Below, piece after piece: positions 3,050-59,811 of a stretch of 64,000 nt of DNA. A program made the translations under genes and the position numbers. Source of the DNA: Minisyncoccota bacterium (lineage in GTDB: Bacteria > Patescibacteriota > Minisyncoccia > Phycocordibacterales > CAJBRS01). The notes below the pieces were generated by a model. The model was not told where the DNA came from. It was given only the letters and a program-made list of their open reading frames with translations, and searched no databases. The stretch lies in assembly GCA_035652395.1 (NCBI GenBank), contig DASRDX010000013.1, forward strand, positions 3,255 to 67,254. Direction: 5' to 3'. Each line of letters starts with the position of its first letter. The first letter of the stretch is position 1.

Positions 3050-3128
3050 TGGTCGAGAATCAAGGATTTGAACCTTGGACCTCCTGCTTCCGAAGCAGGC
3101 GAGAACAACCAGGCTTCTCTAATTCTCG
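3050..3128 (-). tRNA. tRNA-Pro (anticodon CGG)
   Basis: cloverleaf on minus strand: T-arm CAAGG-TTCAAAT-CCTTG, acceptor CGAGAAT/ATTCTCG, encoded CCA, anticodon loop TTCGGAA. Confidence 0.7.
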
Positions 3129-3137
3129 ATTAAAAAT

Positions 3138-3225
3138 TGGTCGAATCAGCAGGACTCGAACCTGCAAGGCCGTTAGGCACTGGTTTCCAAAACCAGAGGG
3201 CTTCCATTTACCCGCCTATGACTCG
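3138..3225 (-). tRNA. tRNA, anticodon UGG (Pro-like) with a long variable arm
   Basis: T-arm GCAGG-TTCGAGT-CCTGC, acceptor CGAGTCA/TGATTCG, A73, CCA, anticodon loop TTTGGAA; 14-nt variable arm is atypical for Pro. Confidence 0.55.
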
Positions 3226-3228
3226 AAA

Positions 3229-3519
3229 TTATTGCATTAAAGGAACCCAATATGTAGTTCCCGACAAAACTATTTTCAAAAAACCAACTATATCGCGTGG
3301 ATTAGACGGCCCGTCGCCAGTTCCTTTCTGAGGAGCACGTACTGTCTGAATACCCCCATTACCTACACCCAACTGATGCAACAAAACTAACTGATTTCCA
3401 GACGAAGTTCCGACATAAAGCTGAGCTTCATCTGTTGCAAAATACAACTCTCCCGTTTGCAATATGGGCATATTTGCTTTAATGCCGCGCAAAACTTGAA
3501 TACCTACATTTCTAGCCAT
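3229..3519 (-). CDS. tail-fibre-like protein (paralog of 3519-4040)
   Basis: N-terminal motif IQVLRG.K...L.TGE.YFATD...LYVGTSSG shared with the next ORF. Confidence 0.45.
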   Translation of the reverse strand: MARNVGIQVLRGIKANMPILQTGELYFATDEAQLYVGTSSGNQLVLLHQLGVGNGGIQTVRAPQKGTGDGPSNPRDIVGFLKIVLSGTTYWVPLMQ

Positions 3520-4040
3520 TAGAAGCTACCGCAATCTATATTCGTTAGGCTTGAGCCTGCTCCAATCGAAGTCGGTAATTGAGTTTGAGCGAGTAAGCCT
3601 GAAATATCAGCAAATGAAGGTTGTGCTAAATGCTGAACACCGTTATTATCAATATATGTCACAAACTGATGAGTTACAGGTGCCGATAAACCCTGAATAG
3701 TCGTTCCCGATGTAACTCCTATGGCTGTCCAATTTACATTATTCGACGCTGGCTCGTCAGTTAAAATGTATGTACGATTGTTATCGGCTTGTAAACACAA
3801 ATCTCCGATAAGAACACCAGTTAGCGCCAACCTAGATGTTTGGTCGGCTGCCGTAAAAACTTTTACATCATTGGCTAATCTAGACCAAGCGGCAGGTATT
3901 CCAGTTCCGCTTCCAGTATCAACATAAATTTCATTAGTGTCTGTTGTCCACGCAAGTACACCCGCAAAACCCGTGGACGGCAAAGTTGACAAACTAGATT
4001 TCGTTCCTCGATAAAGCTGAATAGATACATTAAGACTCAT
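3519..4040 (-). CDS. tail-fibre-like protein (paralog)
   Basis: N-terminal motif IQLYRGTK...TG...TTDTNEIYVDTGSG; 173 aa. Confidence 0.45.
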   Translation of the reverse strand: MSLNVSIQLYRGTKSSLSTLPSTGFAGVLAWTTDTNEIYVDTGSGTGIPAAWSRLANDVKVFTAADQTSRLALTGVLIGDLCLQADNNRTYILTDEPASNNVNWTAIGVTSGTTIQGLSAPVTHQFVTYIDNNGVQHLAQPSFADISGLLAQTQLPTSIGAGSSLTNIDCGSF

Positions 4041-4246
4041 TAAAAAGTACCCGCATCAATTGAAGTTTCGGTTATGGCAGCCGCCGATATTTGAGTAGTT
4101 CCGTCAAAAAACGTAATTCTTGGAGTGTGTACTGTGCCTTTTCCATCAATTGAGAAAAGTATTTCTCCATTCCTATTTATCAAATGAAGAAAATCCTCGC
4201 CATGAGAAAGATACTTTCCCATTGATGCTTGTTTTGATATGTTCAT
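4040..4246 (-). CDS. hypothetical protein
   Basis: ORF trimmed to ATG at 4246 to avoid overlapping tRNA-Gln. Confidence 0.3.
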   Translation of the reverse strand: MNISKQASMGKYLSHGEDFLHLINRNGEILFSIDGKGTVHTPRITFFDGTTQISAAAITETSIDAGTF

Positions 4247-4265
4247 CTGCTTAAAACTCAAATAT

Positions 4266-4339
4266 GGTTGCGGCGCTTGGACTCGAACCAAGATGACTAG
4301 TTTCAGAGACTAGCATCCTACCAATTGAATGACATCGCA
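4266..4339 (-). tRNA. tRNA-Gln (anticodon CUG)
   Basis: T-arm CTTGG-TTCGAGT-CCAAG, anticodon stem CTAGT/ACTAG with loop CTCTGAA, CCA encoded. Confidence 0.65.
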
Positions 4340-4355
4340 ATAAAATTTCAAAATT

Positions 4356-4429
4356 TGGTTGCTTCGTCAGGACTCGAACCTGAATAACAAGTTTCAAAGA
4401 CTTGCGAATTGCCAATTATTCGACAAAGC
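4356..4429 (-). tRNA. tRNA-Gln (anticodon UUG)
   Basis: T-arm TCAGG-TTCGAGT-CCTGA, acceptor TGCTTTG/CGAAGCA, loop CTTTGAA. Confidence 0.7.
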
Positions 4430-4431
4430 AA

Positions 4432-4509
4432 TTGGAGCACAAGGAGGGAATCGAACCCTTCGTATATTCGTTTTGCAGACGAATGCCTTGCCACTTGGCT
4501 ACTCGTGCT
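4432..4509 (-). tRNA. tRNA-Cys (anticodon GCA)
   Basis: acceptor GCACGAG/CTTGTGC, T-loop TTCGATT, anticodon stem TTCGT/ACGAA with loop CTGCAAA. Confidence 0.65.
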
Positions 4510-4512
4510 TAA

Positions 4513-4559
4513 GTGTCACATATTTCACTGTAAAACGCTTATGGTAAAATATGTGACAC
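4513..4559. repeat. 11-bp perfect inverted repeat GTGTCACATAT / ATATGTGACAC (25-nt spacer)
   Basis: seen directly between tRNA-Cys and tRNA-Ser; spacer contains TGGTAAAAT (extended -10-like). Confidence 0.8.
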
Positions 4560-4566
4560 TATAAAA

Positions 4567-4652
4567 TGGCAGAGGATAACCGAGTCGAACGATTAACCTT
4601 TCGGTTAGCCTAGTTTTCAAGACTAGTTGGGAACCATCTCCCGCTACCCTCT
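4567..4652 (-). tRNA. tRNA-Ser (anticodon UGA)
   Basis: type II: acceptor AGAGGGT/ATCCTCT, G73, 3-bp D-stem, loop CTTGAAA, variable arm TAACC-GAAA-GGTTA. Confidence 0.75.
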
Positions 4653-4657
4653 AAAAT

Positions 4658-4744
4658 TGGCGGAGTGCGAAGGATTTGAACCTCCACAACCTTTCGGTCG
4701 CTTGTTTAGCAAACAAGTGCGGCTACCAATTTCGCCAGCACTCC
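4658..4744 (-). tRNA. tRNA-Ser (anticodon GCU)
   Basis: type II: acceptor GGAGTGC/GCACTCC, G73, loop TTGCTAA, long variable arm, T-loop TTCAAAT. Confidence 0.75.
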
Positions 4745-4751
4745 GTATAAT

Positions 4752-5080
4752 GTGGTGAACAATAGCCAGGATTCTGTATAACGGCCATCATCCATCTAAG
4801 CTGCCTACCCGGCGTTCTGCGTGCTCAACTCACTCCCGCCCTATTTGGCATTGCACTCAGAGGGAGTTTCTCGACTCCAATGATTCTAACTATCCGCCAA
4901 TAATTAGAATATCGAGGCTTACCCGTCCAATTACTCGGCCCGCAACTTCCACGGTCTGATGTTGAGATGTGTCCTGAACTTCCTCGGAATTTCGCCCCCT
5001 GTAATACGATGCTCAAGGTACGCCTTGACGACACCTTACGGTTTGAGGGAGCCACCGTTCCGCGATAGCCTAGTTCACCA
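4752..5080 (-). ncRNA. rnpB: RNase P RNA, bacterial type A-like
   Basis: minus-strand sequence contains GCCAAATAGGG, CCGGGTAGGCAGCTTAGATGGATGA and ACAGAATCCTGGCTATTG...TTCACCA; these are collinear with E. coli M1 RNA blocks GCCAAATAGGGG, CCGGGTAGGCTGCTTGAG, CTAGATGAATGA and ACAGAACCCGGCTTATCGG...TTTCACCT; P4-like GAGGAAGTTCAGGAC; P1 pairing GGTGAAC/GTTCACC. Confidence 0.75.
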
Positions 5081-5411
5081 AATTCAATTTATTCTTTACG
5101 GCTTTTCCAATAAGATATGTAGCCACAAGAAAAGAAACAATCAGTCCCAAGAATCCTAAAACCAATAAAACGTCTCCGGGACTTGCTATCGTATCTCCGA
5201 TTGAAATATAGTCACATAAAATCTTCAAATGACTGTATGTTGCCATTGAAACGTGCTCATTGTCAAGAAAAATTTCTTGATTCGTCAATTTTCCTACATA
5301 AACGGGCATCATACCGTTGTTTGCCGATATGGCGGCAACGTTTAATAAACCACCTAATATATAACTCACGATAGACACGAGAGCACAAAGCATTACTTTT
5401 AACGGCCTCAT
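5070..5411 (-). CDS. small membrane protein
   Basis: 113-aa ORF with two hydrophobic segments; its stop abuts the rnpB 5' end. Confidence 0.4.
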   Translation of the reverse strand: MRPLKVMLCALVSIVSYILGGLLNVAAISANNGMMPVYVGKLTNQEIFLDNEHVSMATYSHLKILCDYISIGDTIASPGDVLLVLGFLGLIVSFLVATYLIGKAVKNKLNLVN

Positions 5412-5427
5412 ATTTGTGCCTCGATTT

Positions 5428-5503
5428 TGGACGACTCGGCGGGACTCGAACCCGCATAAGAAGTTTAGGAAACTTCTGTCTTATCCGATTAAACGACAAA
5501 TCG
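5428..5503 (-). tRNA. tRNA-Arg (anticodon CCU)
   Basis: T-arm GCGGG-TTCGAGT-CCCGC, acceptor CGATTTG/CGAGTCG, loop TTCCTAA. Confidence 0.6.
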
Positions 5504-5581
5504 TGGAGGCCCCGGCGAGAATCGAACTCGCATACGCTGATTAGAAGTCAGCGGTCCTGTCCGTTGAACGACAGAGCCTTA
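5504..5581 (-). tRNA. tRNA-Arg (anticodon UCU)
   Basis: T-arm GCGAG-TTCGATT-CTCGC, acceptor GGCTCTG/CGGGGCC, loop CTTCTAA. Confidence 0.65.
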
Positions 5582-5593
5582 AAAACTTTTTGG

Positions 5594-5666
5594 CGAGACA
5601 TGAGGGACTTGAACCCCCACCCTACGGTTTTGGAGACCGATATGCTGCCACTAACACCTATGACTC
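5594..5666 (-). tRNA. tRNA-Trp (anticodon CCA)
   Basis: anticodon arm CGGT-CTCCAAA-ACCG identical to the canonical tRNA-Trp arm; T-loop TTCAAGT; one acceptor mismatch. Confidence 0.6.
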
Positions 5667-5676
5667 GCGTTAAACT

Positions 5677-5751
5677 TGGAGCGGTCGGCGGGACTCGAAC
5701 CCGTCTTCTTCAGCTTGGAAGGCTGAGGCACAACCTTTATACCACGCCCGC
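5677..5751 (-). tRNA. tRNA-Gly (anticodon UCC)
   Basis: T-loop TTCGAGT, anticodon stem TCAGC/GCTGA with loop CTTCCAA. Confidence 0.6.
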
Positions 5752-5874
5752 TCGAAAAATTATTTTCTTGTCGGCACGTTCCTTTTCCAGACAAAAAATA
5801 GCGACGTAGAAAGTCAGCGTTCGACGACATTGTAACAAAGTCAGCGATTGGCGACTCGAAAAATTATTTTCTTG
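5751..5874. repeat. 21-bp direct repeat CTCGAAAAATTATTTTCTTG (5751-5770 and 5855-5874)
   Basis: two identical copies bracket a 100-bp spacer immediately upstream of tRNA-Gly; a 10-mer AAAGTCAGCG is also duplicated inside. Confidence 0.8.
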
Positions 5875-6298
5875 AAAGCCTAGCAATCCAATTGTCGGTA
5901 TGTTTCTGTCTTTCCAACATACAGTTTACAGCGAACTCAAAATCCCCATAATTCACATAAGCAAAAGGATTATTATACTGTGAATCCTTGGCCATGTAAA
6001 CTTGCTTTCCATCGCGGCTCCAATCCCAAACATCGTTATGACTGCACTCATACCTGTCGGGAATCAAAAACTCGTCCCAATCGCCACTCGATAAAACTTT
6101 CTTAATGGCTTGGTTTTGAGTGCGACGAACGGCTCTCGCTGCTTGTGTTTTATCCCAACGAGCACTATTGGAGCCGCAAACAAAACTAGCATACGGCTTT
6201 CTATATGAACGACTCATCAGAGACCTCACGGTTAAATCTAATGAATACTCATATACTACAAAAATGGAGCGAAGTACGATAATCGAAATCGTACTCAA
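5864..6298 (-). CDS. hypothetical protein embedded in the tRNA array
   Basis: 144-aa ORF (alternative start MSRSYRK at 6217); no recognisable motifs. Confidence 0.4.
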   Translation of the reverse strand: MSTISIIVLRSIFVVYEYSLDLTVRSLMSRSYRKPYASFVCGSNSARWDKTQAARAVRRTQNQAIKKVLSSGDWDEFLIPDRYECSHNDVWDWSRDGKQVYMAKDSQYNNPFAYVNYGDFEFAVNCMLERQKHTDNWIARLSRK

Positions 6299-6344
6299 AC
6301 CTTGGCAAGGTTTTGTTCTGCCACTAAACTAACTTCGCTAAAAT

Positions 6345-6426
6345 TGGTTGCGGGGGAGGGAATCGAACCCACTTTGGACAAGCCACAAGGTTATGAGTCT
6401 TGTGTGCACCCGGAGCACATCCCCGC
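6345..6426 (-). tRNA. tRNA with CAU anticodon (Met/Ile2-like), atypical
   Basis: acceptor GCGGGGA, T-loop TTCGATT, anticodon loop CTCATAA closed by an A.C pair, 13-nt variable segment; irregular. Confidence 0.5.
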
Positions 6427-6432
6427 TTCAAT

Positions 6433-6507
6433 TGGTCGTTCGGGTTGGAATCGAACCAACCATGCACGCTTTATGAGAACGCCGCCTAGCCGATTAGCTT
6501 CCGAACG
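6433..6507 (-). tRNA. tRNA-Met/fMet/Ile2 (anticodon CAU)
   Basis: acceptor CGTTCGG/CCGAACG perfect, T-arm GTTGG-TTCGATT-CCAAC, loop CTCATAA. Confidence 0.65.
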
Positions 6508-6519
6508 AAATCATAAATT

Positions 6520-6605
6520 TGGTGCGCCTGACAGGACTCGAACCTGTACGCCCGAAGGCACCAGTTTCTAAGACTGGCGTGTCTGCCCAATTCCATCCAC
6601 AGACG
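6520..6605 (-). tRNA. tRNA-Leu (anticodon UAG)
   Basis: type II: acceptor GCGTCTG/CAGGCGC, A73, loop CTTAGAA, variable arm TGCCTTCGGGCGT. Confidence 0.75.
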
Positions 6606-6609
6606 CAAA

Positions 6610-6685
6610 ATGGAGGCGTAGAAGGGAGTCGAACCCTCGTTCTCAGCTTGAAAGGCTGATGTCCTGGCCATTAGACGACTTCGCC
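6610..6685 (-). tRNA. tRNA-Glu (anticodon UUC)
   Basis: T-arm GAGGG-TTCGACT-CCCTT, anticodon stem TCAGC/GCTGA with loop CTTTCAA. Confidence 0.65.
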
Positions 6686-6695
6686 ATTATCCAAT

Positions 6696-6769
6696 TGGTG
6701 ACCCTGAGCGGTACTGACCCGCTGTTCTTAGATTGAGAATCTAATGTCCTGCCTTTAGACGACAGGGCC
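6696..6769 (-). tRNA. tRNA-Glu (anticodon CUC)
   Basis: acceptor GGCCCTG/CAGGGTC, D-arm TCGTCTAAAGGCAGGAC (Glu-like), loop TTCTCAA; unusual T-loop GTCAGTA. Confidence 0.55.
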
Positions 6770-6770
6770 T

Positions 6771-6845
6771 TGGCGGTGCTACTGGGAATCGAACCCAGAC
6801 TTCAGCCGTGACAGGGCCGTGTCGTTACCAACTGACCCTAGCACC
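6771..6845 (-). tRNA. tRNA-Asp (anticodon GUC)
   Basis: acceptor GGTGCTA/TAGCACC perfect, T-arm CTGGG-TTCGATT-CCCAG, loop CTGTCAC. Confidence 0.7.
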
Positions 6846-6847
6846 GT

Positions 6848-6923
6848 TGGAGCTTCGTGAAAGAATCGAACTTTCACTTCACCCTTACCAAGGGCGCGTT
6901 CTACCATTGAACTAACAAAGCGT
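6848..6923 (-). tRNA. tRNA-Thr (anticodon GGU)
   Basis: acceptor GCTTTGT/ACGAAGC, D-arm GTTC-AATGGTA-GAAC, loop TTGGTAA. Confidence 0.7.
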
Positions 6924-6966
6924 ACCATGAAACTTTTATTTTGTCAACTAAAAACTTAGCGATTTT

Positions 6967-7040
6967 TGGAGCTTCGTCGTGGAATCGAACCACGGCTCGC
7001 GGTTTACGAAACCGCTGTCATGCCACTAGACCAACAAAGC
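6967..7040 (-). tRNA. tRNA-Thr (anticodon CGU)
   Basis: acceptor GCTTTGT/ACGAAGC, T-arm CGTGG-TTCGATT-CCACG, loop TTCGTAA. Confidence 0.7.
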
Positions 7041-7052
7041 AAACTTAAAAAT

Positions 7053-7127
7053 TGGAGCACAATGTTGGATTTGAACCAACTCCCGCCGTTTACAAAACGG
7101 CCATTCTACCAATTAAACTAATCGTGC
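7053..7127 (-). tRNA. tRNA-Thr (anticodon UGU)
   Basis: acceptor GCACGAT/ATTGTGC, T-arm GTTGG-TTCAAAT-CCAAC, loop TTTGTAA. Confidence 0.7.
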
Positions 7128-7160
7128 ATTATTTTACGACACTTTAAAAATTTCAAAATT

Positions 7161-7237
7161 TGGCTCCAGCCCTGGGACTCGAACCCAGACCTTCATGGTT
7201 AACAGCCAAGCGTCCTGCCAAATTGGACCAGACTGGA
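7161..7237 (-). tRNA. tRNA-Asn (anticodon GUU)
   Basis: acceptor TCCAGTC/GGCTGGA, D-arm GTCC-AATTTGGCA-GGAC, T-arm CTGGG-TTCGAGT-CCCAG, loop CTGTTAA. Confidence 0.65.
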
Positions 7238-7341
7238 ATAAAAAGCAAGGCAACAAGCGTTATAAGTCTTTTTTCACACTAGAAGAAGTATCTCATAACT
7301 ACGGCACTTGCTATTTCTCTGCACTGCTGCATTATAACTAT

Positions 7342-7416
7342 TGGAGGACCGCAAGGGATTTGAACCCTTAATTATGCGTTCGAAGCGCATTGGTTTATCC
7401 GTTAGCCTAACAGTCC
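7342..7416 (-). tRNA. tRNA-Arg (anticodon UCG)
   Basis: acceptor GGACTGT/GCGGTCC, T-arm AAGGG-TTCAAAT-CCCTT, anticodon stem ATGCG/CGCAT with loop CTTCGAA. Confidence 0.65.
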
Positions 7417-7423
7417 TAAAAAT

Positions 7424-7498
7424 TGGAAGGCCGTGCGGGAGTCGGACCCGCGTCTGCGGATTCGTAGTCCGCTGTCTTTTCCTCTAAACGAACAGCCT
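7424..7498 (-). tRNA. tRNA-Arg (anticodon ACG)
   Basis: acceptor AGGCTGT/ACGGCCT, T-arm GCGGG-TCCGACT-CCCGC, loop CTACGAA. Confidence 0.6.
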
Positions 7499-7500
7499 TT

Positions 7501-7576
7501 TGGTACGCCGTAATGGAATCGAACCATTCCTTCTGGTTTGTAGGACCAGCGCATACTACCAGTTTGCTAACAGCGT
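7501..7576 (-). tRNA. tRNA-Val (anticodon UAC)
   Basis: acceptor ACGCTGT/ACGGCGT, T-arm AATGG-TTCGATT-CCATT, loop CCTACAA (C33 is unusual). Confidence 0.55.
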
Positions 7577-7577
7577 A

Positions 7578-7653
7578 TGGTGGACGAAACAGGCTCTGCC
7601 CCTGCCGCCTCCGCATTGCAAGTGCGGCGCTCTCCTGAATGAGCTACTCGCCC
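7578..7653 (-). tRNA. tRNA-Ala (anticodon UGC) with non-canonical T-loop
   Basis: perfect 76-nt cloverleaf: acceptor GGGCGAG/TTCGTCC with G3:U70, D-arm GCTC-ATTCAGGA-GAGC, anticodon arm CCGCA-CTTGCAA-TGCGG, T-arm GCAGG-GGCAGAG-CCTGT, A73, CCA; no GTTCGA motif. Confidence 0.6.
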
Positions 7654-7762
7654 AAAATGAATCTCCTCTATAATAAGCTTGAGTCCCAAACAACAAGATT
7701 CGGACTCTCCACACCTAACACAAGAATACGCCCGTTTGTATTCCTGAGTGTAATCCCAAACT

Positions 7763-7836
7763 TGGTACTCCACCAAGGACTCGAACCTTGACGAGACGCT
7801 AATCAGGCATCCATGCTACCACTACATCAGCGGAGT
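7763..7836 (-). tRNA. tRNA-Ile (anticodon GAU)
   Basis: acceptor ACTCCGC/GTGGAGT, T-arm CAAGG-TTCGAGT-CCTTG, anticodon stem GATGC/GCGTC with loop CTGATTA. Confidence 0.65.
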
Positions 7837-7965
7837 ACGAAAAATTCAAGCCGATACTTTTTACGCCTCGGACTAATTGAACGACTTCCTCTCAACGGGC
7901 GCTGCGCGGTCTGCACACTAACTTTCTCAAAAAATATTTAATCAAGCAAACCCAACGCCAGAATA

Positions 7966-8280
7966 TTACTGGCCAAGGAAACGGGCGTTGGTTACAGGGT
8001 TTGGGACTGGCTGTGTCAGCGTAAAAGTCAAAAACACCGGACTTGATTTCTGAGCCAGATTATCAACCGCATAAATAGCGACCGCCTTACCGCCTGGGTT
8101 CGCGTATTGAAGAACCAACGGCGCGGCATCGGTAGGAGTAGTTTTTACGTCCGCTCCGTCAGGTCTCGGCGCTGTTCCTACAACATTATTTGACAAATCC
8201 GCATCCCAAACTTCAAAATGGTCAAAAACAATTTGCGGGTCGGATGCGGTCCAATCCCACGCTATTTTAGCATTTAACAT
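7966..8280 (-). CDS. hypothetical protein embedded in the tRNA array
   Basis: 104-aa ORF with RBS GAGGGAAAC; hairpin CCAACGCC...GGCGTTGG plus T-run downstream. Confidence 0.4.
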   Translation of the reverse strand: MLNAKIAWDWTASDPQIVFDHFEVWDADLSNNVVGTAPRPDGADVKTTPTDAAPLVLQYANPGGKAVAIYAVDNLAQKSSPVFLTFTLTQPVPNPVTNARFLGQ

Positions 8281-8335
8281 GTTTCCCTCAGCCCTTTTGT
8301 AAAGGGGACTTTTTAAAAATGACTGCGAAACAAAT

Positions 8336-8427
8336 TGGTGGAGAAGGCAGGATTCGAACCTACAGTATCCACATTGGGATGCCGGGGGTTACAGCCCGGT
8401 AGGGCGACCTGTTGCCCCAACCTCTCC
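8336..8427 (-). tRNA. tRNA-Tyr (anticodon GUA)
   Basis: type II, 92 nt: acceptor GGAGAGG/CTTCTCC, A73, T-arm GTAGG-TTCGAAT-CCTGC, loop CTGTAAC. Confidence 0.65.
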
Positions 8428-8498
8428 ATTAAACTTGCTTTACGTAAATTTTATAAACCAAAGTTCCATTCGGAATATAACGGCTCGCGCTTAAAATT

Positions 8499-8578
8499 TG
8501 GTCGCCCTGGGAAGATTTGGATACTTCCAACCCCGACGCTTAAAAGGCGTGTGCTCTTACCAATTGAGCTACAAGGCG
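8499..8578 (-). tRNA. tRNA-Lys (anticodon UUU)
   Basis: acceptor CGCCTTG/CAGGGCG, D-arm GCTC-AATTGGTAA-GAGC, loop CTTTTAA; enlarged T-loop. Confidence 0.55.
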
Positions 8579-8584
8579 AAAAAT

Positions 8585-8659
8585 TGGTAGTCCGCGACGG
8601 ATTCAAACCGTCACCTATCTCCTTAAGAGGGAGTAATGCCGTCATAACACCTGCGGACT
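8585..8659 (-). tRNA. tRNA-Lys (anticodon CUU)
   Basis: acceptor AGTCCGC/GCGGACT perfect, T-arm GACGG-TTTGAAT-CCGTC, loop CTCTTAA. Confidence 0.65.
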
Positions 8660-8710
8660 AAAAATTTTGTTGGGAACAACTCTCCGTTTGTTCCTTCTAT
8701 CACACAAAAT

Positions 8711-8799
8711 TGGTACTCGATGAAGGAATCGAACCTTCCAGCAAGGGTAATCTGCCCCGACGCTTTATAAGAGCGTGCTGCGGACCGCCGCTATCGAGT
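8711..8799 (-). tRNA. type II tRNA with anticodon UAU (atypical; identity unclear)
   Basis: acceptor ACTCGAT/ATCGAGT perfect, A73, T-arm GAAGG-TTCGATT-CCTTC, perfect anticodon stem ACGCT/AGCGT with loop CTTATAA, about 21-nt variable arm. Confidence 0.55.
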
Positions 8800-8803
8800 A
8801 AAC

Positions 8804-9040
8804 TTAAATTTGCTGTACAGGAGCGGGCTTACCGCGCAAAATTCCTTTCTGAATCATCTGCTCCGGCGTAAAAACATTTGGGTCAAATCTATTTTCATGG
8901 CCCAATAAATACTTCGGAGTTAAAGTGTGCCTGTCCGATTCGGGCAACTTACCCGACCTCATTTGCCTGGGTATATTGTAATGCGGCATATTGCCTCTTG
9001 ATAATCGAATTGGTGCGCTGCGAGAGAATCGAACTCCCAC
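8804..9040 (-). CDS. hypothetical protein
   Basis: 78-aa ORF between tRNAs; start uncertain (internal ATG at 8989). Confidence 0.25.
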   Translation of the reverse strand: MGVRFSRSAPIRLSRGNMPHYNIPRQMRSGKLPESDRHTLTPKYLLGHENRFDPNVFTPEQMIQKGILRGKPAPVQQI

Positions 9041-9098
9041 GCCGTTTTAAGGCCGAAGATTTTAAGTCTCCTGCGTCTGCCTGTTCCGCCAGCAGCGC
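9011..9098 (-). tRNA. tRNA-Leu (anticodon UAA)
   Basis: type II: acceptor GCGCTGC/GCAGCGC perfect, A73, T-arm GGGAG-TTCGATT-CTCTC, loop CTTAAAA. Confidence 0.75.
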
Positions 9099-9104
9099 AA
9101 AATT

Positions 9105-9191
9105 TGGTGCCTTTGGAGGGAATCGAACCCCCACGGGACTGTGCCCACCGCGTTTTGAGTGCGGCGCGTCTGCCTGTTCCACCACAAAAGC
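9105..9191 (-). tRNA. tRNA-Leu (anticodon CAA)
   Basis: type II: acceptor GCTTTTG/CAAAGGC, A73, T-arm GGGGG-TTCGATT-CCCTC, loop CTCAAAA. Confidence 0.65.
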
Positions 9192-9192
9192 A

Positions 9193-9266
9193 TGGCCCCT
9201 ATCCGTGGAATCGAACCACGACTACCTGTTCTTCAGACAGGGGTGCGGCCACTACACCAAACAGGG
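9193..9266 (-). tRNA. tRNA-Phe (anticodon GAA)
   Basis: acceptor CCCTGTT/GATAGGG, T-arm CGTGG-TTCGATT-CCACG, anticodon stem CCTGT/ACAGG with loop CTGAAGA. Confidence 0.65.
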
Positions 9267-9336
9267 ACAGAAACTTTGACTTTCTGAGAATCTAGAATGG
9301 CCCGCTTCATGCAGCAAGCCGAATACGGGCGACTGC

Positions 9337-9564
9337 TTAAAGCTTTCTTCGGGCCTTTCTTCCACCATATAATTCCGCATGGCCTCCCCAAACACTTTCG
9401 CGTGCCTCATGTGCCCCAAGGCCCGTTTCCAAAAGACGGCAGTACTTACGAAGGGCAACAATTGCTACTGCCGCGCTCTCTGGGTCATCCATGATTTCCG
9501 ACTCTAACGCCGATGCTTCTTGACGTTCTTCAAAATCAAGCTCAGCTACGGATTCCGTAATCAT
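9337..9564 (-). CDS. hypothetical acidic protein
   Basis: 75-aa ORF with RBS AAGGGG; preceded by a 26-aa ORF (9574-9651) with RBS AAGGAAG. Confidence 0.3.
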   Translation of the reverse strand: MITESVAELDFEERQEASALESEIMDDPESAAVAIVALRKYCRLLETGLGAHEARESVWGGHAELYGGRKARRKL

Positions 9565-9895
9565 CATTGGCCCCTTAACTCTTTTCCTTCAAAAGGCGAA
9601 CCAACTCCGAGTCCGACGTTGGAACGTGCTCGAATTGTTTACGGTCTGCCATGCCTTAAACTTCCTTAACGCTGTAATTATCAGGCTCGAACTTGCGGCC
9701 CTCAACCTGAGATTTTGCTTGCTGCAAAGCGGCTTGAGGGGTTTCGGCCTCGGCTTCAATCTTTATCTTCTGAGTCAAGGTAATTTTATACGTTTTCAAT
9801 TTTTTATCCTTTCAGCCTTGAGGGCCGTGGGTTGAAGGTAAGGAGTAGTAGAAAACCTCACGGCCCTCACTCTGCGCTTTACTTTACCACGCAAC

Positions 9896-9937
9896 CCGAA
9901 AACTTGTCAAGAACTATTTTCGGGTTTTTTCCCGCTG
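9896..9937 (+). terminator. intrinsic terminator-like hairpin
   Basis: ACCCGAAAA-loop-TTTTCGGGT followed by TTTTTT; a second hairpin CCCGCTGGCGCGGG and a T10 run lie just downstream. Confidence 0.4.
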
Positions 9938-10040
9938 GCGCGGGCTTAAACCGGGCATGTTTTTTTTTTAATTGTAGCCTCGACTACGCCCAGCATAACT
10001 CTTCGATAAAAAATCTACAACAACTCTTAAAATTTGTCAA

Positions 10041-10116
10041 CAGTTTTTTTTGGGGTGAAGAGTGGGAATCGAACCCTACACTGACTCTTTCACAGAGAGC
10101 CATGCTGCCGTTACAT
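10041..10116 (-). tRNA. tRNA-His-like (anticodon GUG), degenerate
   Basis: T-loop GGG-TTCGATT-CCC, anticodon stem GCTCT/AGAGT with loop CTGTGAA, C at discriminator as expected for His; weak T-stem and acceptor pairing. Confidence 0.45.
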
Positions 10117-10137
10117 CATCCACACCTCGGTTTAATT

Positions 10138-33291: not shown

Positions 33292-36200
33292 ATGACTGTT
33301 GAAATGAGTAAATTCGCAAGCGATATAATGAAGCAAAAATACAGCCATCTTAATAAAGAAGGCGAGGTGGAAAATTGGCAAAACATTGCTTATCGAGTGA
33401 GCAAAAAAGTTTTACAAGCTGTTCGTGCGCCTCATAGCCAAATAGAGGCTACTAGGAAGATAATTGAAAACCGAAAGTTTATTCCCGGCGGCAGGTATTT
33501 GGCTAGTACTGGCAGACTCTTTCACCAAGTGAATAATTGCGGCGCAGGAGAAACTAGGGTAGTTACCAAAGAAGGAGTCAAGACCCTTAAAGAATTGTCA
33601 GGAACTAAACCTACTCTTATGACCACAAATGGGACATGGGTAGAGGCAGACGTGAAAAGTTTTGGAAAGCAGCCTTTACTTAGAGTGCGTATTCGCAGAG
33701 ACAAGTATGAAAAAGATTTGTACATGACCCCCGAACATTCTTGGAGAATAGCCAAGTATTATAGCAATGGTAGGTGTGCCCACAAGGTAGAAGTATTGAC
33801 AAAAGACCTGAAACCAGGAGATATGTTGTGGCAGGTTTTCGGATACGGAGCGAAAAGAACGCCGATTAGTATTGATGGAATTAGGCACGGCATTGTTTTC
33901 GGGAGTAGCGGTTCTGAAGTCGTGTTATGTGGAAAGAAGAACCTTGAGATTTTGAAGTTTTTCAAGGGTTATAAATTAAAAAAACACGAATCGGGAGTGA
34001 AAGTTTCGGGACTCCCAAAAACTTATAAGGATTTACCGTCTCTTCAAAATGATAGGTCATATCTTTTAGGCTGGCTGTGTGGATACTTTGCCGCAGACGG
34101 ATGCGTGTCTAAAGACGGGAAAATTGAATTAGCTTCTACAAATCTAAAAAATTTGGAGCGTGTTAGAGAAATTTGTTACGTTATCGGCATCGGCACTAAA
34201 AATATTAGGAAGCAGGTAAGAATTTCTAATCTAACTAAAAAGACATCTGTTATTTATTATTTACCATTTATACCTAGTACACTTTCAAAAAAATTCTTTT
34301 TAATTTCTAAGCACAGGGAAAATTTCAAAATTAAAAAGACCCCAATTTGGTCTGTTGTTTCAGTAAATAAAACCAACAGATTTGAAGAAGTGTTCTGTGC
34401 AATTGTTCCTGAAACTCACGAGTTTGTGCTAGAAGATAACATCCTTACGGGTAATTGTTTCTTGTTCAGGGCTGAAGATTCGCGCGAAGGTTGGGCGGAT
34501 TTAATGCACAAAATTACCTTAGCTCTAATGACAGGCGGAGGAATCGGAGTTGACTATTCCGATGTGCGGGAAGAAGGACGTATAATCAGAAAAACAGGCG
34601 GTAAGTCAACAGGCCCGTTGGCTCTTATGCAAATGGTCAATGAAGCTGGGCGATTTATTATGCAAGGCGGAAGCCGACGTTCGGCTATTTGGGCTGGACT
34701 TAATTGGAAACATCCCGACATACAGAAGTTTATAAGAATGAAAGATTGGTCAGAAGTTGTAAAGTTGGAAAAAACTAAAAATTTCAATTTTCCGGCTGTC
34801 TTGGATATGACCAATATATCAGTTCTTTTGGATGATGAGTTTTTTGAGGCTTACCATAATGAAAAACACGAACAACATGTTTTGGCAACGTCGGTATATT
34901 GGTCAGCAATCAGGCACATGCTTGAAACGGGCGAGCCTGGATTTTCAATTGACGTCGGAAAAAATTCCCGCGAAACGCTTCGTAACGCGCCAATATGCGG
35001 GGATGTTTGGGTTCTGACTTCCGAAGGATATAAAGAAGTAAAAGCCATAATAAATAAGCCAGTGACAATATGGACAGGAAAGCGGTGGGCGTTGAATGTC
35101 GTGTTTCAAAAAACAAAGTCCGATGCTCCCATTGTTAAAGTAAAAATGACTGGCGGGCGATATATTCGTTGCGATGAAAGCCATGAATTTCTAACGGGCA
35201 GCGAAGGATTTTTTAGGGTTCCTGCCAAGGACCTCAAACCCGGAGATGTTTTGTACACAGCCTTGAACTATCCCGAACAAAAAACTAAGTTTCATTTAGA
35301 TTCTTATATTTTGGGTTATATGTATGGAGACGGAACATTTAATAAAAATGGAACGGCAGAGATAACTTTTTGCACTGAAAAGTCCATAAAATGTGCTAAA
35401 CCCATGTCGCGGTCTAGTATTTTTTCGAGCATGAACCGCAACTCCAAAGGATATTTAAGAGCTTATTTTAAGAAAAGTGATTTTTGGTCGGGCAGAAACA
35501 AATCAACATTTCCAAAGGATGTGTACGCTTATGACCAACATAAGGCATTAAGTTTCGTGGCTGGTTTGTTTGATTCTGATGGAAATTATGAATCTAAACA
35601 GAATCGTATTCGATTAGCATCTAAGCACGAAAGTTTTTTGAGGGGCGTAGCTAGATTATTGGAACAATTTGGAATTTTTGCTGGAGTTACAAAAGCGGGC
35701 ATTTCTACTTTTGGCAAGTCTCAAGGCTATCAGCTTGTGGTAATGTCTGAGTACAATGATATGTTTTCTAAATTGATTCCCACAATTAGAGTAAGGCCGA
35801 GAAAACAGAAACAGAGCAACCGCCACTCTGTTATTAAAGTAGTGAGTGTCGAATCGGATGGAGTGGAGGATGTATATTGCGCCGATGTTCGTGTGGATGA
35901 ACACAGTTTTCAAGCCGAGGGTGTTATAATTTCCAATTGTACGGAGATTACTAGCTCTGACGATTCCGACGTTTGTAATTTAGGTTCAATTAACATGGCT
36001 AGAATTGAATCGCTAGAGGAAATGGAGCGTGTAGTTGAACTTGGTTCGGCATTTCTCTTGGCGGGAACTGTGTATTCCGACGTTCCATTTGCTGCTATAG
36101 ATAAAGTGCGCAGCAAGAATCGTCGTCTTGGCCTAGGACTTATGGGGCTGCACGAATGGCTCCTAAAGAAAGGAAAGAAGTACGGGCCGGATGAAGAATT

Positions 36201-36801
36201 AGCAAAATATTTGGAAATTTATGCGAAATCAGGAAAGATGGTAGCACCTTATGTCAAAAAATGGGAGCTAAGTCAGCCTGTAAAAACTAGAGCAATAGCG
36301 CCGAACGGGACGATAGGAATCATAGCTGAAACTACTACAGGCATCGAACCTATATTTTGTGCCGCCTATAAGCGACGATATTTGAAAGGGGATGTTTGGC
36401 ACTTTCAATATGTCGTTGACCCGACAGCCAAGAGGCTCTTAGATTCAGGAGTGCCGTTGGAATTGATTGAAGATGCTTACGACTTGGCTAAAGATGTCGA
36501 AAGAAGAGTGGCATTTCAAGCATGGGTTCAAGAGTATGTGGACCATAGTATCAGTAGTACAATTAATCTTCCAAAATGGGGTTCTGAACTAAACAATGAA
36601 AATAAAGTCAGGAATTTTGGTGACATGCTAATAAAATATCTTCCGAAATTAAGAGGAATAACAGTGTATCCCGACGGCTCAAGACCGGGACAACCGTTAA
36701 ATCCTGTTCCTTTGGCTGTTGCTTTGTCTCAAGAAGGACATGTATTCGAGGAATCTGGCAGTACAGTTTGCGACATAACAAAAGGAGGAGAATGCGGATG
36801 A
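33292..36801 (+). CDS. ribonucleotide reductase catalytic subunit (class II-like) interrupted by two inteins
   Basis: extein blocks GGGIGVDYS, catalytic Cys (NAPIC|...|TEI) and CNLGSINMA; 1169 aa is about 549 aa after intein removal. Confidence 0.75.
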   Translation: MTVEMSKFASDIMKQKYSHLNKEGEVENWQNIAYRVSKKVLQAVRAPHSQIEATRKIIENRKFIPGGRYLASTGRLFHQVNNCGAGETRVVTKEGVKTLKELSGTKPTLMTTNGTWVEADVKSFGKQPLLRVRIRRDKYEKDLYMTPEHSWRIAKYYSNGRCAHKVEVLTKDLKPGDMLWQVFGYGAKRTPISIDGIRHGIVFGSSGSEVVLCGKKNLEILKFFKGYKLKKHESGVKVSGLPKTYKDLPSLQNDRSYLLGWLCGYFAADGCVSKDGKIELASTNLKNLERVREICYVIGIGTKNIRKQVRISNLTKKTSVIYYLPFIPSTLSKKFFLISKHRENFKIKKTPIWSVVSVNKTNRFEEVFCAIVPETHEFVLEDNILTGNCFLFRAEDSREGWADLMHKITLALMTGGGIGVDYSDVREEGRIIRKTGGKSTGPLALMQMVNEAGRFIMQGGSRRSAIWAGLNWKHPDIQKFIRMKDWSEVVKLEKTKNFNFPAVLDMTNISVLLDDEFFEAYHNEKHEQHVLATSVYWSAIRHMLETGEPGFSIDVGKNSRETLRNAPICGDVWVLTSEGYKEVKAIINKPVTIWTGKRWALNVVFQKTKSDAPIVKVKMTGGRYIRCDESHEFLTGSEGFFRVPAKDLKPGDVLYTALNYPEQKTKFHLDSYILGYMYGDGTFNKNGTAEITFCTEKSIKCAKPMSRSSIFSSMNRNSKGYLRAYFKKSDFWSGRNKSTFPKDVYAYDQHKALSFVAGLFDSDGNYESKQNRIRLASKHESFLRGVARLLEQFGIFAGVTKAGISTFGKSQGYQLVVMSEYNDMFSKLIPTIRVRPRKQKQSNRHSVIKVVSVESDGVEDVYCADVRVDEHSFQAEGVIISNCTEITSSDDSDVCNLGSINMARIESLEEMERVVELGSAFLLAGTVYSDVPFAAIDKVRSKNRRLGLGLMGLHEWLLKKGKKYGPDEELAKYLEIYAKSGKMVAPYVKKWELSQPVKTRAIAPNGTIGIIAETTTGIEPIFCAAYKRRYLKGDVWHFQYVVDPTAKRLLDSGVPLELIEDAYDLAKDVERRVAFQAWVQEYVDHSISSTINLPKWGSELNNENKVRNFGDMLIKYLPKLRGITVYPDGSRPGQPLNPVPLAVALSQEGHVFEESGSTVCDITKGGECG
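33538..34455 (+). mobile_element. intein 1 (306 aa) with LAGLIDADG-type block
   Basis: begins with Cys after FHQVNN, ends ...ILTGN followed by Cys; internal LLGWLCGYFAADGCV. Confidence 0.6.
34996..35937 (+). mobile_element. intein 2 (314 aa) with two LAGLIDADG motifs, inserted at the catalytic cysteine
   Basis: begins with Cys after NAPI, ends ...VIISN followed by CTEI; motifs ILGYMYGDGTF and VAGLFDSDGNY. Confidence 0.65.
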
Positions 36802-58389: not shown

Positions 58390-58860
58390 TTAGCCGCGTC
58401 CTTGTTGACTGACATACGTTTTGAGAATTTCTAACGTCGCTCCACCTACGGAGCAAAGGAAGAAACCGCTAGACCAAAGAGTACGAGCATGACGACCCCA
58501 ATAGAAGGAACCAAATCGGCTGAGATAGGCGGAAGCACTCTTACTTTTGAGAGTGCCAACAACTGCGCTCAAGTTAGCCGTGGGAGGGTAGCGGAGAAGA
58601 AAGTGGATGTGGTCGGCATCGCCACCAAACTCAACAACCGCACAGCCGATGCTATCAACAACGCCAGTAAGCATCTCACGAATAAACGGAAGGTCGGCAA
58701 GAAGCTTCCTGCGGAACTTCGTGCAAAAGACGACGCGCACACAAAGATGGTAGACACAGTGACTTGCTGTATCAAAATCAAGTGCCCCGATTTTCTTCGT
58801 CCCGTACTTGATTCCTTGGTACCCAAGGCTCGTGCCTGCGTTGATAGAATGCTCGCTCAT
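58390..58860 (-). CDS. tnpA: IS200-like transposase TnpA (HuH, Y1)
   Basis: HuH motif DHIHFLL, conserved CVYHLCVRVVFCTKFRRK block; start trimmed to the MSEHS Met. Confidence 0.7.
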   Translation of the reverse strand: MSEHSINAGTSLGYQGIKYGTKKIGALDFDTASHCVYHLCVRVVFCTKFRRKLLADLPFIREMLTGVVDSIGCAVVEFGGDADHIHFLLRYPPTANLSAVVGTLKSKSASAYLSRFGSFYWGRHARTLWSSGFFLCSVGGATLEILKTYVSQQGRG

Positions 58861-59811
58861 CGCGACCAGTCCTCTAGTAAATATTATCACGAGATACCGA
58901 GCGCAATCAGCAAGAGTCTGATTGCGAAGTACCAAAGAAATAAGAAATGCAAATCGGTAACCAACCTCGTGTTGCCTATCTCCGGAGACAAAGGCAGGCA
59001 GATTAAGTTGGAAGCAGGCGGGTTGAGAATCCCTGCACTATTCAAAAAAGAAATTCTGCCCGTTATATGGTTGCGACTGCCTGTAGGATTCATCCGTAGT
59101 GCAGAATTTTTTATGCGCAAAGGCGGGTGGTACGCAGCAGTTTGCTACAACGCAAAAGCGGATAAGCAGTTCGTGTGCACGGGAACAGTGGGCGTTGACC
59201 GTAACTCGGTTGGTGCTGTCGCAACGTTGGCAGACCCACAAAGCGGGAAAGTTTTGCATCTTGGTTTCAACCCAGCAAAGACAAAAGAAGTCTGGAGGGG
59301 GCGGAAAGCAAATTTGCAGGGTCTTGGGAAGAAGCGTCTTCTTCACGAGATTCGTAATAAGCAATCAAGACGCACGAAGTACGAAAATCATGTCGTGTCC
59401 AAGCAGATTGTGGACTACGCCGCGAAACATCGTCGGTGCATTAACGTAGAGAAATTGGAGAACGTCAGGAAGGGGAAGATTCGCCGTTATAGCGAGTCGT
59501 CTCAGTGGTCTTTCTATCAGTTGCTTCAATTCATTCTCTACAAAGCCGCTTTGCGCGGGGTAATGGTGCTGGAAGTAGATTCTGCGTATACATCGCAGGA
59601 GTGCTCCCGATGCCATCAGTTAACCAAGCCCAACGGTAAGTCATATCGTTGTGGACATTGCGGACACAATGACCACCGAGACGCTAACGCGGCATTTAAC
59701 GTCGCAGGACGCGCGATGCCTATCGGTGGAGTAGTCGGAGACTCAGTGCGCTCCGATTCGGGCCTATTGGTAGTCCCGTTTCTGGGAACCGAGGTGCAGC
59801 AATGCAACTAG
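58852..59811 (+). CDS. tnpB: TnpB (OrfB) RuvC-like protein with zinc finger
   Basis: RuvC-I GVDRNSV, C-terminal CSRCH...CGHCGH zinc finger; start uncertain (58489, 58744 or 58852). Confidence 0.65.
   Translation, partial: LAHRDQSSSKYYHEIPSAISKSLIAKYQRNKKCKSVTNLVLPISGDKGRQIKLEAGGLRIPALFKKEILPVIWLRLPVGFIRSAEFFMRKGGWYAAVCYNAKADKQFVCTGTVGVDRNSVGAVATLADPQSGKVLHLGFNPAKTKEVWRGRKANLQGLGKKRLLHEIRNKQSRRTKYENHVVSKQIVDYAAKHRRCINVEKLENVRKGKIRRYSESSQWSFYQLLQFILYKAALRGVMVLEVDSAYTSQECSRCHQLTKPNGKSYRCGHCGHNDHRDANAAFNVAGRAMPIGGVVGDSVRSDSGLLVVPFLGTEVQQCN

Follow-up and report, generated by a model that had tools for sequence, protein, structure and literature searches.

The window analysed here is a stretch of 64 kb (contig DASRDX010000013.1, positions 3,255 to 67,254; all coordinates below are those of the window unless a contig handle is given) whose minus strand carries a dense array of tRNA genes. 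An element of 334 nt lying within this array is supported to be a full-length homologue of the bacterial type-A ribonuclease P (RNase P) RNA, that is, an rnpB homologue. The contig itself is concluded, on its gene content, to be a tailed phage genome of roughly 92 kb from soil. The original prediction, made from the sequence of the window, had placed a phage-encoded RNase P RNA gene between a tRNA-Ser(GCU) gene and a small membrane-protein gene and had described it as co-oriented with about 34 tRNAs. Both neighbours lie where it put them, and 35 tRNA genes were counted, all on the minus strand (32 detected by ARAGORN, plus Glu(CUC), Ala(UGC) and Lys(UUU) detected by Rfam).

An RNase P RNA homologue in a tRNA gene array

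A search by E-value aligns the element with model positions 1–367 of RF00010, the Rfam family of bacterial type-A RNase P RNA, at 78 bits. The E-value is 6.5e-24 in a 651-nt region and 6.4e-22 in the whole window, where this is the top-ranking match, and RF00010 is the best-scoring member of the RNase P clan for the element. The match expected from the original prediction was obtained from end to end, while nothing was returned at the curated threshold of the family. The conserved blocks that the prediction quoted (GCCAAATAGGG, CCGGGTAGGCAGCTTAGATGGATGA, ACAGAATCCTGGCTATTGTTCACCA and GAGGAAGTTCAGGAC) and the terminal pairing GGTGAAC/GTTCACC are all found on the minus strand in the expected place. 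No gene is called at the element in the public gene calls of other copies of the contig, including the identical contig L124. Positions within the element are numbered as 5082 minus the window coordinate.

The P4 and P6 pseudoknots are left out of the structure line of RF00010 and are not scored by the model. Their formation is therefore evidence independent of the RF00010 score. The identity of the element as an RNase P RNA is supported by the covariance-model match together with a compensated P4 pseudoknot and a P6 pseudoknot of 6 bp.

Helices and pseudoknots

All 102 modelled pairs, distributed over 15 helices, are standard. The helices are P1 (8 bp), P2 (7), P3 (5), P4 (8), P5 (3), P6 (6), P7 (5), P8 (5), P9 (5), P10 (3), P11 (7), a P12-like helix (7), P15 (4), P16 (4) and P17 (3). 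The closing stack P1-P2-P3 is present, and both the P4-like block and the P1 pairing on which the prediction relied form in the helix model with standard pairs. The insertion in P3 (68 nt) folds as a long irregular hairpin (−23.3 kcal/mol). The predicted P1–P18 architecture is found in part: the order P1–P12 and P15–P17 and the P4 and P6 pseudoknots are there, while P13, P14, P18 and conserved regions (CR) II and III are missing.

The P4 helix reads AGU(U)CAGGA/UCCUG-GCU in the element and AAG(U)CCGGG/CCCGG-CUU in E. coli. When it is compared with E. coli M1 RNA, four of the eight pairs (67-359, 68-358, 71-356 and 74-353 in E. coli numbering) differ on both strands, with the position of the bulged U kept. 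In an alignment of 13 RNase P RNAs (alignment A1), the pairing of P4, P5 and P15 reaches 100% of the cells, a level matched by none of 500 shuffles and to be compared with 24–47% in slid controls. A unique C-G to A-U change in this alignment comes from the window sequence. The P6 pseudoknot has a chance probability of 0.001–0.03 and a sequence unrelated to that of E. coli P6. The corresponding segments of three short RNase P RNAs from metagenomes (see below) also pair when inspected by eye (L342, GAGC/GCUC; L360, GAGU/ACUC; L339, CCAC/GUGG).

Conserved core and reduced specificity domain

The element keeps every column that does not vary among the 13 aligned RNAs (GAGGAA, CAA, GGGUAGG, AGAUG.AU and ACAGAA). 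The single strands of the catalytic domain are intact, namely GAGGAA in J3/4, CAA in J5/15, L15, UAGAUGGAUG in CR-IV and ACAGAA in CR-V, and the CR-IV pattern AGAUG.AUG, used as a test of the conserved core, was found. The L15 loop (AAAUAG/GGGUA) carries the GGU that binds the 3'-CCA of tRNA; the P15-P16-P17 module with this GGU, together with P6, provides the type-A signature.

The specificity domain is reduced. It retains the P7–P11 cruciform, with a GUAA loop on P9 and a P11 that includes the AAACUCC strand, and all five P7 pairs differ from those of E. coli. The place of P12–P14 is taken by the 7-bp P12-like hairpin and eight unpaired nucleotides only. Two further features are also kept, an A bulged out after P9 and, in P10/P11, the AAACUCC strand with its AAAC bulge; we take them to correspond to E. 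coli A118 and A232–A234, contacts of the tRNA T-stem. The features of the locus and the short RNase P RNAs found elsewhere are listed in Table 1.

Table 1. Features of the RNase P RNA element, its surroundings and short RNase P RNAs from metagenomes
Feature	Coordinates	Strand	Remarks
Whole RNase P RNA homologue	4748..5081	(-)	334 nt; RF00010 alignment and helix model
P1 5' strand UGGUGAAC	5073..5080	(-)	8 standard pairs with 4753-4760; overlaps last DUF5317 codons
P1 3' strand GUUCACCA	4753..4760	(-)	Helix model
P2 5' strand GGCUAUC	5064..5070	(-)	7 standard pairs with 4783-4789
P3 and insertion	4985..5062	(-)	68 nt vs 14 in Rfam consensus
CR-I / P4 5' strand GAGGAAGUUCAGGAC	4971..4985	(-)	Bulged U at window 4977 (U105)
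P6 5' strand CUCAAC (J5/7)	4961..4966	(-)	6 Watson-Crick pairs with GUUGAG
Reduced specificity domain	4857..4959	(-)	P7, P8, P9, P10, P11 and one P12-like hairpin
J5/15 CAA	4851..4853	(-)	Equivalent of E. coli C247-A249; invariant in alignment A1
P15-P16-P17 module	4802..4850	(-)	L15 GGU at 4807-4809, the 3'-CCA binding site
P6 3' strand GUUGAG (P17 loop)	4824..4829	(-)	Pairs with CUCAAC
CR-IV UUAGAUGGAU	4790..4799	(-)	Directly follows P15; P18 absent
CR-V: ACAGAA and P4 3' strand UCCUGGCU	4764..4777	(-)	8 standard P4 pairs
Spacer CAUUAUAC between P1 and tRNA-Ser(GCU) 5' end	4745..4752	(-)	9 nt, ACAUUAUAC, if A4753 is unpaired
tRNA-Ser(GCU)	4658..4744	(-)	Immediately downstream of element; CCA encoded
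DUF5317 membrane-protein gene, 113 aa	5070..5411	(-)	PF17248, E 2.3e-10; upstream of element
tRNA array	3050..10125	(-)	35 co-oriented genes, all 20 amino acids
Short RNase P RNAs (246-302 nt) in co-oriented tRNA clusters, metagenomic	L301 132-377; L342 5147-5448 (= L382 1670-1971); L360 914-1185		
Further short RNase P RNAs in tRNA clusters, metagenomic	L387 1154-1425; L339 7267-7529; L350 2385-2682		

Proposed function of the element

The reading favoured here, and held to be probable, is that the element is a true type-A RNase P RNA in miniature, borne by the phage, and that it would work with the host RnpA protein on the phage's own pre-tRNAs. From the homology, structure, core nucleotides and setting of the element, and from the CCA ends of the tRNAs, we infer a course of transcription, processing, protein binding and catalysis. 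The element would be co-transcribed with the surrounding tRNA genes into a polycistronic precursor, and the 3' end of the RNA would be freed by an RNase P cut at the 5' end of tRNA-Ser(GCU), 9 nt downstream. The RNA would fold to an intact catalytic domain (P1–P5, P15–P17, the P4 and P6 pseudoknots, CR-I, CR-IV, CR-V and J5/15) and bind RnpA, for which a host origin is proposed because no rnpA-like gene turned up in the window or in L124. The resulting enzyme would cut the 5' leaders of the 35 closely packed pre-tRNAs of the phage. As most of the part of the specificity domain that reads the T-loop is lost, the enzyme would rely for substrate binding on pairing of the L15 GGU with the 3'-CCA of the tRNA. 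The CCA end is encoded in 32 of the 32 tRNA genes detected by ARAGORN and in the folded Ala and Lys genes. The combination of an intact catalytic domain, a degenerate specificity domain and a GGU/CCA match fits a recognition centred on the acceptor end rather than on the T-loop. Constructs made of the catalytic domain only, and the archaeal type-T RNA that naturally lacks the specificity domain, are active with protein.

The phage would gain a tRNA maturation that depends neither on how much RNase P the host has nor on which substrates that enzyme prefers. The need for it might come from the substrate load of 35 tRNAs or from a host enzyme that becomes scarce after shut-off. If the host is a bacterium from the Candidate Phyla Radiation (CPR), it might also come from a host enzyme mismatched to the phage tRNAs, because two-thirds of the CPR RNase P RNAs are without the CCA-binding motif (PMC8172020).

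Several results weigh against the favoured reading. At the Rfam gathering score of RF00010 (100 bits) the window returns tRNAs only and the element goes unreported, and the z-score of its minimum free energy (−1.4) is uninformative. The P18 hairpin has 0 nt where the consensus of the Rfam alignment has 24. CR-II (ACAGAAA), CR-III (GUGAAA), P13 and P14 are missing, their model positions being deleted with 13, 15 and 15 nt left. The P4 equivalents of E. coli A67, G68 and C71, constant in most of the 13 RNAs, are altered, each with compensation, and this might affect the metal-binding geometry. Tblastn with E. coli and B. subtilis queries, a regular expression for the RNR motif and a screen for small basic open reading frames (ORFs) brought up nothing convincing as RnpA in the window or in L124. 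The searches found no orthologue from a related phage, hence no covariation within the lineage, and neither tRNAs nor RNase P lie within 10 kb in relatives of the terminase (L125, L126 and L410–L412).

The main rival is that a captured rnpB copy no longer cleaves tRNA and is now a relic, an RNA that serves host RnpA or pre-tRNAs as a decoy or sponge, or a spacer for folding or processing of the operon. This is judged unlikely. It draws on the loss of CR-II/CR-III, P13/P14 and P18, on the sub-threshold score and on the substitutions at normally constant P4 positions, and plastid-encoded RNase P RNAs are reported to be functionally defective (PMC4264200). Under decay, however, the modelled pairs would not all have stayed standard (102 of 102). 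Nor does a relic agree with a P4 repaired by four double-sided changes, a P6 restored by an entirely new 6-bp sequence and a catalytic domain in which every single-stranded core block is intact. The match between the encoded CCA and the L15 GGU suggests substrate binding in the normal mode. Simple decay is thus argued against, while a decoy role may be compatible with the sequence alone.

The genome that carries the element

The window encodes a DNA polymerase, a primase, helicases and a ribonucleotide reductase. Contig L124, which is identical over the locus, continues into a terminase (Terminase_6C) and an SU10-type portal, 8–11 kb from the element. The phage setting assumed by the original prediction is supported by the presence of all these genes on the same contig. 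The same proteins are found on at least 24 contigs (Logan, JGI, ENA and NCBI), the longest of 92–95 kb. The six copies of the element, five of them from other assemblies, are 100% identical, and since the locus is identical in these five assemblies it is not a chimera. Terminase relatives of 55–65% identity lie on contigs of ~100 kb with the same synteny of His_Phos_1, terminase and portal.

The contig might instead be cellular, the element then being an ordinary diverged rnpB of a CPR bacterium (Candidatus Paceibacterota) or part of a region flanking a prophage; this is considered improbable. NCBI labels the identical proteins HZS43350.1, HZS43397.1 and HZS43355.1 'MAG TPA: Candidatus Paceibacterota bacterium', and RNase P RNAs of CPR bacteria are likewise sub-threshold in Rfam, without P13/P14/P18 and with extended helices (PMC8172020). 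The element lies, however, between phage structural genes (terminase, SU10 portal) and phage replication genes, independent assemblies yield discrete contigs of 92–95 kb, and the terminase relatives point the same way, being ~100-kb contigs of the same synteny. A dense array of 35 tRNAs in ~7 kb, the absence of cellular housekeeping genes among the ORFs scanned and the presence of the CCA-binding motif, which two-thirds of the CPR RNAs are without (PMC8172020), further oppose a cellular origin. The Paceibacterota label may stem from faulty binning or may point to a CPR host. Chance resemblance or a protein-coding origin, to which the overlap of the element with two ORFs of 66–76 aa could point, is effectively refuted by the full-length covariance-model match (E 6.4e-22) and by the ORFs themselves (4825-5055 (-) and 4959-5159 (+)), which exist but are spurious, as the prediction had it, having no Pfam match at E<=1 and not being called as genes on the public contigs.

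Some genes of this genome have unusual features of their own. The terminase gene of L124 (15705-18473) codes for 922 aa, compared with ~760 in its relatives, and BLAST coverage is ~51%, pointing to a large insertion that may be an intein. The match of the 1169-aa ribonucleotide reductase (33292-36801) falls into three segments, and an endonuclease-like piece lies between these. A gene for a TnpB/IS605 OrfB-like transposase (58489-59811 (+), PHROG 506) codes for a protein weakly similar to the TnpB found beside the L339 RNA. A distant terminase-related IMG/VR contig has a group I intron of 59.5 bits (L127 19301-19512).

Relatives of the element

Searches for close relatives returned little. GenBank phages gave no match in blastn with the element or with 20 kb of the window. 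In IMG/VR there was no exact 25-mer and no match to a pattern lacking P18, and 14-mers matched at chance level only. Scanning GTDB genomes for the P4 3' strand in its variant form yielded 37 loci of mixed taxonomy, none of them similar to the element. The DUF5317 protein has no homologues outside its own cluster, and relatives of a 430-aa neighbour protein (L130–L132) have no tRNAs within 10 kb.

Several candidates were discarded. Matches of a general type-A pattern in IMG/VR are canonical RNAs (113–349 bits) on contigs resembling host DNA or prophage flanks. An M1-like match in Microcystis phage MaAM05 (L408, MW495066.1 111323-119518) lies in host DNA, the region having fabI, engB, mtgA and glyS, and a match to M1 RNA in Acinetobacter MD-2021a was rejected since the prophage flank is host DNA. 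In L401 (1-385) the segment with the L339 RNA stands in the opposite orientation but has the same flank on both sides, which marks it as a fold-back assembly artefact and not as a DNA inversion. Note that the MaAM05 record is 274 kb long; its RNase P RNA-like stretch is unannotated and the region resembles a bacterial chromosome.

Type-A RNAs without P18 are common, at least 119 loci being obtained in a metagenome scan. Short-core RNAs were defined as those with no more than 245 nt from CR-I to CR-V, a distance of 208 nt in the window element. Among the matches listed, two or more tRNAs lie within 1.5 kb of 7 of 14 short-core RNAs, compared with 0 of 85 normal-sized RNAs (Fisher's p 2e-7, a value that includes three near-duplicate locus pairs). 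The RNA of L301 (246 nt, 119 bits) stands between two tRNAs with gaps of 0–12 nt in a 20-tRNA array, on a contig whose proteins resemble actinophage capsid-maturation protease and exonuclease genes. L342, whose RNA measures 302 nt and scores 172 bits, encodes a protein that jumbo phages have as well. The RNA of L339 (263 nt, 75 bits) has the same unusual proximal pairs in P4 and the same loss in the specificity domain as the window element, and is surrounded by ORFans, TnpB and a ParB-like nuclease. Mobile elements thus seem to harbour short RNase P RNAs repeatedly; that the other, short contigs with such RNAs are phage is only moderately supported.

It is proposed, tentatively and with rather less confidence than the function of the element itself, that RNase P ribozymes of miniature size are embedded in the tRNA clusters of phages and other mobile elements from several unrelated lineages, so that a cluster would bring its own maturation enzyme, which would also release itself by cuts at the adjoining tRNAs. 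The window would then contain the clearest virus-encoded example in a complete genome, a minimal ribozyme largely without the specificity domain that reads the T-loop.

Note that the L339 RNA is flanked by a perfect inverted repeat of ~30 bp (7246-7275 and 7517-7546) that would extend P1 and could be a processing stem.

Comparison with known RNase P RNAs and tRNA clusters

The element shares with E. coli M1 RNA and the RF00010 consensus the helix order P1–P12 and P15–P17, the P4 with a bulged U, P6, CR-I, CR-IV and CR-V, the CAA of J5/15, the L15 GGU for 3'-CCA and a GNRA loop on P9. It differs from M1 RNA in its length (334 nt, compared with 377 nt), in the lack of P13, P14, P18, CR-II and CR-III, in the 68-nt insertion in P3 and in the compensated changes of P4. 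Its position in a phage tRNA array also contrasts with that of type-A RNase P RNA genes, which are single and chromosomal.

Reduced RNase P RNAs exist in Mycoplasma fermentans (type B), in the Thermoproteaceae ('type T', archaeal) and in plastids and cyanelles (organellar rnpB) (as cited in PMC8172020). Their specificity domain is reduced and their catalytic domain conserved, and they can still work with protein partners. The same division is seen in the element, which retains in addition P7–P11 and the P12-like hairpin; the other minimal RNAs belong to different lineages and none is known to be virus-encoded. The resemblance extends to RNase P RNAs of CPR bacteria, genuine examples of which were found only once the RF00010 threshold was lowered (Lui et al. 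2021, PMC8172020). These share with the element the sub-threshold score, the lack of P13/P14/P18 and the extended helices, and the contig of the element is labelled Paceibacterota. They are, however, chromosomal and cellular, and the CCA-binding motif is absent in 23 of 35 of them (PMC8172020), whereas the phage-borne element keeps this motif and is accompanied by tRNAs ending in CCA.

The coding capacity of phages for tRNAs offers a second comparison. Phage tRNA clusters, such as that of T4, give polycistronic pre-tRNAs that need the host RNase P for 5' maturation, and the phages known to us depend wholly on the host enzyme. The array of the window is of the same kind and differs in that the phage would supply the RNA subunit. 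GOLLD RNA, for which we know of no catalytic function, is like the element a large structured non-coding RNA flanked by tRNAs in a horizontally mobile tRNA gene cluster. Its sequence and fold are unrelated, and the ribozyme family of the element is one that has tRNA precursors as substrate. GOLLD RNA and tmRNA both occur in tRNA clusters of phages and mobile genetic elements (PMC6582537).

The RNA family is known; what is new is its viral carrier, its embedding in a tRNA array and its reduced architecture. To our knowledge RNase P RNA is regarded as a hallmark of cellular life, and even tRNA-rich phages are thought to need the host enzyme. The statement of the original prediction that a virus-borne RNase P RNA is at most very rarely described agrees with searches of full-text literature, which gave no earlier report of one from a phage or another virus, most subscription journals being outside their coverage; the nearest publications concern the diverged RNase P RNAs of CPR bacteria (PMC8172020) and GOLLD RNA in tRNA clusters (PMC6582537). 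In the megaphages that Lui et al. examined, there were only tRNAs and a tmRNA (PMC8172020). A phage that brings both tRNAs for all 20 amino acids and the catalytic RNA for their maturation would extend viral translational autonomy to RNA processing, and RNase P would join the ribozymes encoded by viruses. The element may also be viewed as a natural experiment on how far a bacterial-type RNase P RNA can shrink, having no CR-II/III, P13/14 or P18 and a rewired P4. Curated Rfam thresholds hide such genes in viral and metagenomic data, where the context of a tRNA cluster could reveal more of them.

The tRNA array and its signals

The genes of the array are separated in places by spacers of only 0–13 nt, with a few small ORFs between them; for instance, Arg(UCU) (5504-5578) and Arg(CCU) (5428-5503) abut with a 0-nt spacer. 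The TAG stop of the DUF5317 gene (5070-5072) overlaps P1/P2 of the element. The prediction that the element abuts a TATAAT box was not upheld: the hexamer (4746-4751) belongs to the plus strand, opposite the spacer between P1 and tRNA-Ser(GCU), and is antisense to the element. On the strand of the element itself, the promoter scan detected no promoter-like site next to it, the best site of that strand being at 6000-5972, and the scan of the locus found no terminator-like site between the element and its neighbours. Note that the plus-strand TATAAT, which the scan did not flag as promoter-like, would if active drive an antisense transcript across the ribozyme gene.

Two tRNA genes of the array have unusual features. 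An 89-nt gene called as Ile(UAU) (8711-8799 (-)) has a long variable arm of class II type and reaches 39.8 bits, a sub-threshold score, with the Rfam tRNA-Sec model. A 92-nt gene (8336-8427 (-)) is given by ARAGORN a four-base anticodon 'gtaa' (Tyr|Leu); its anticodon loop may be unusual, and it is probably a class-II tRNA-Tyr(GUA).

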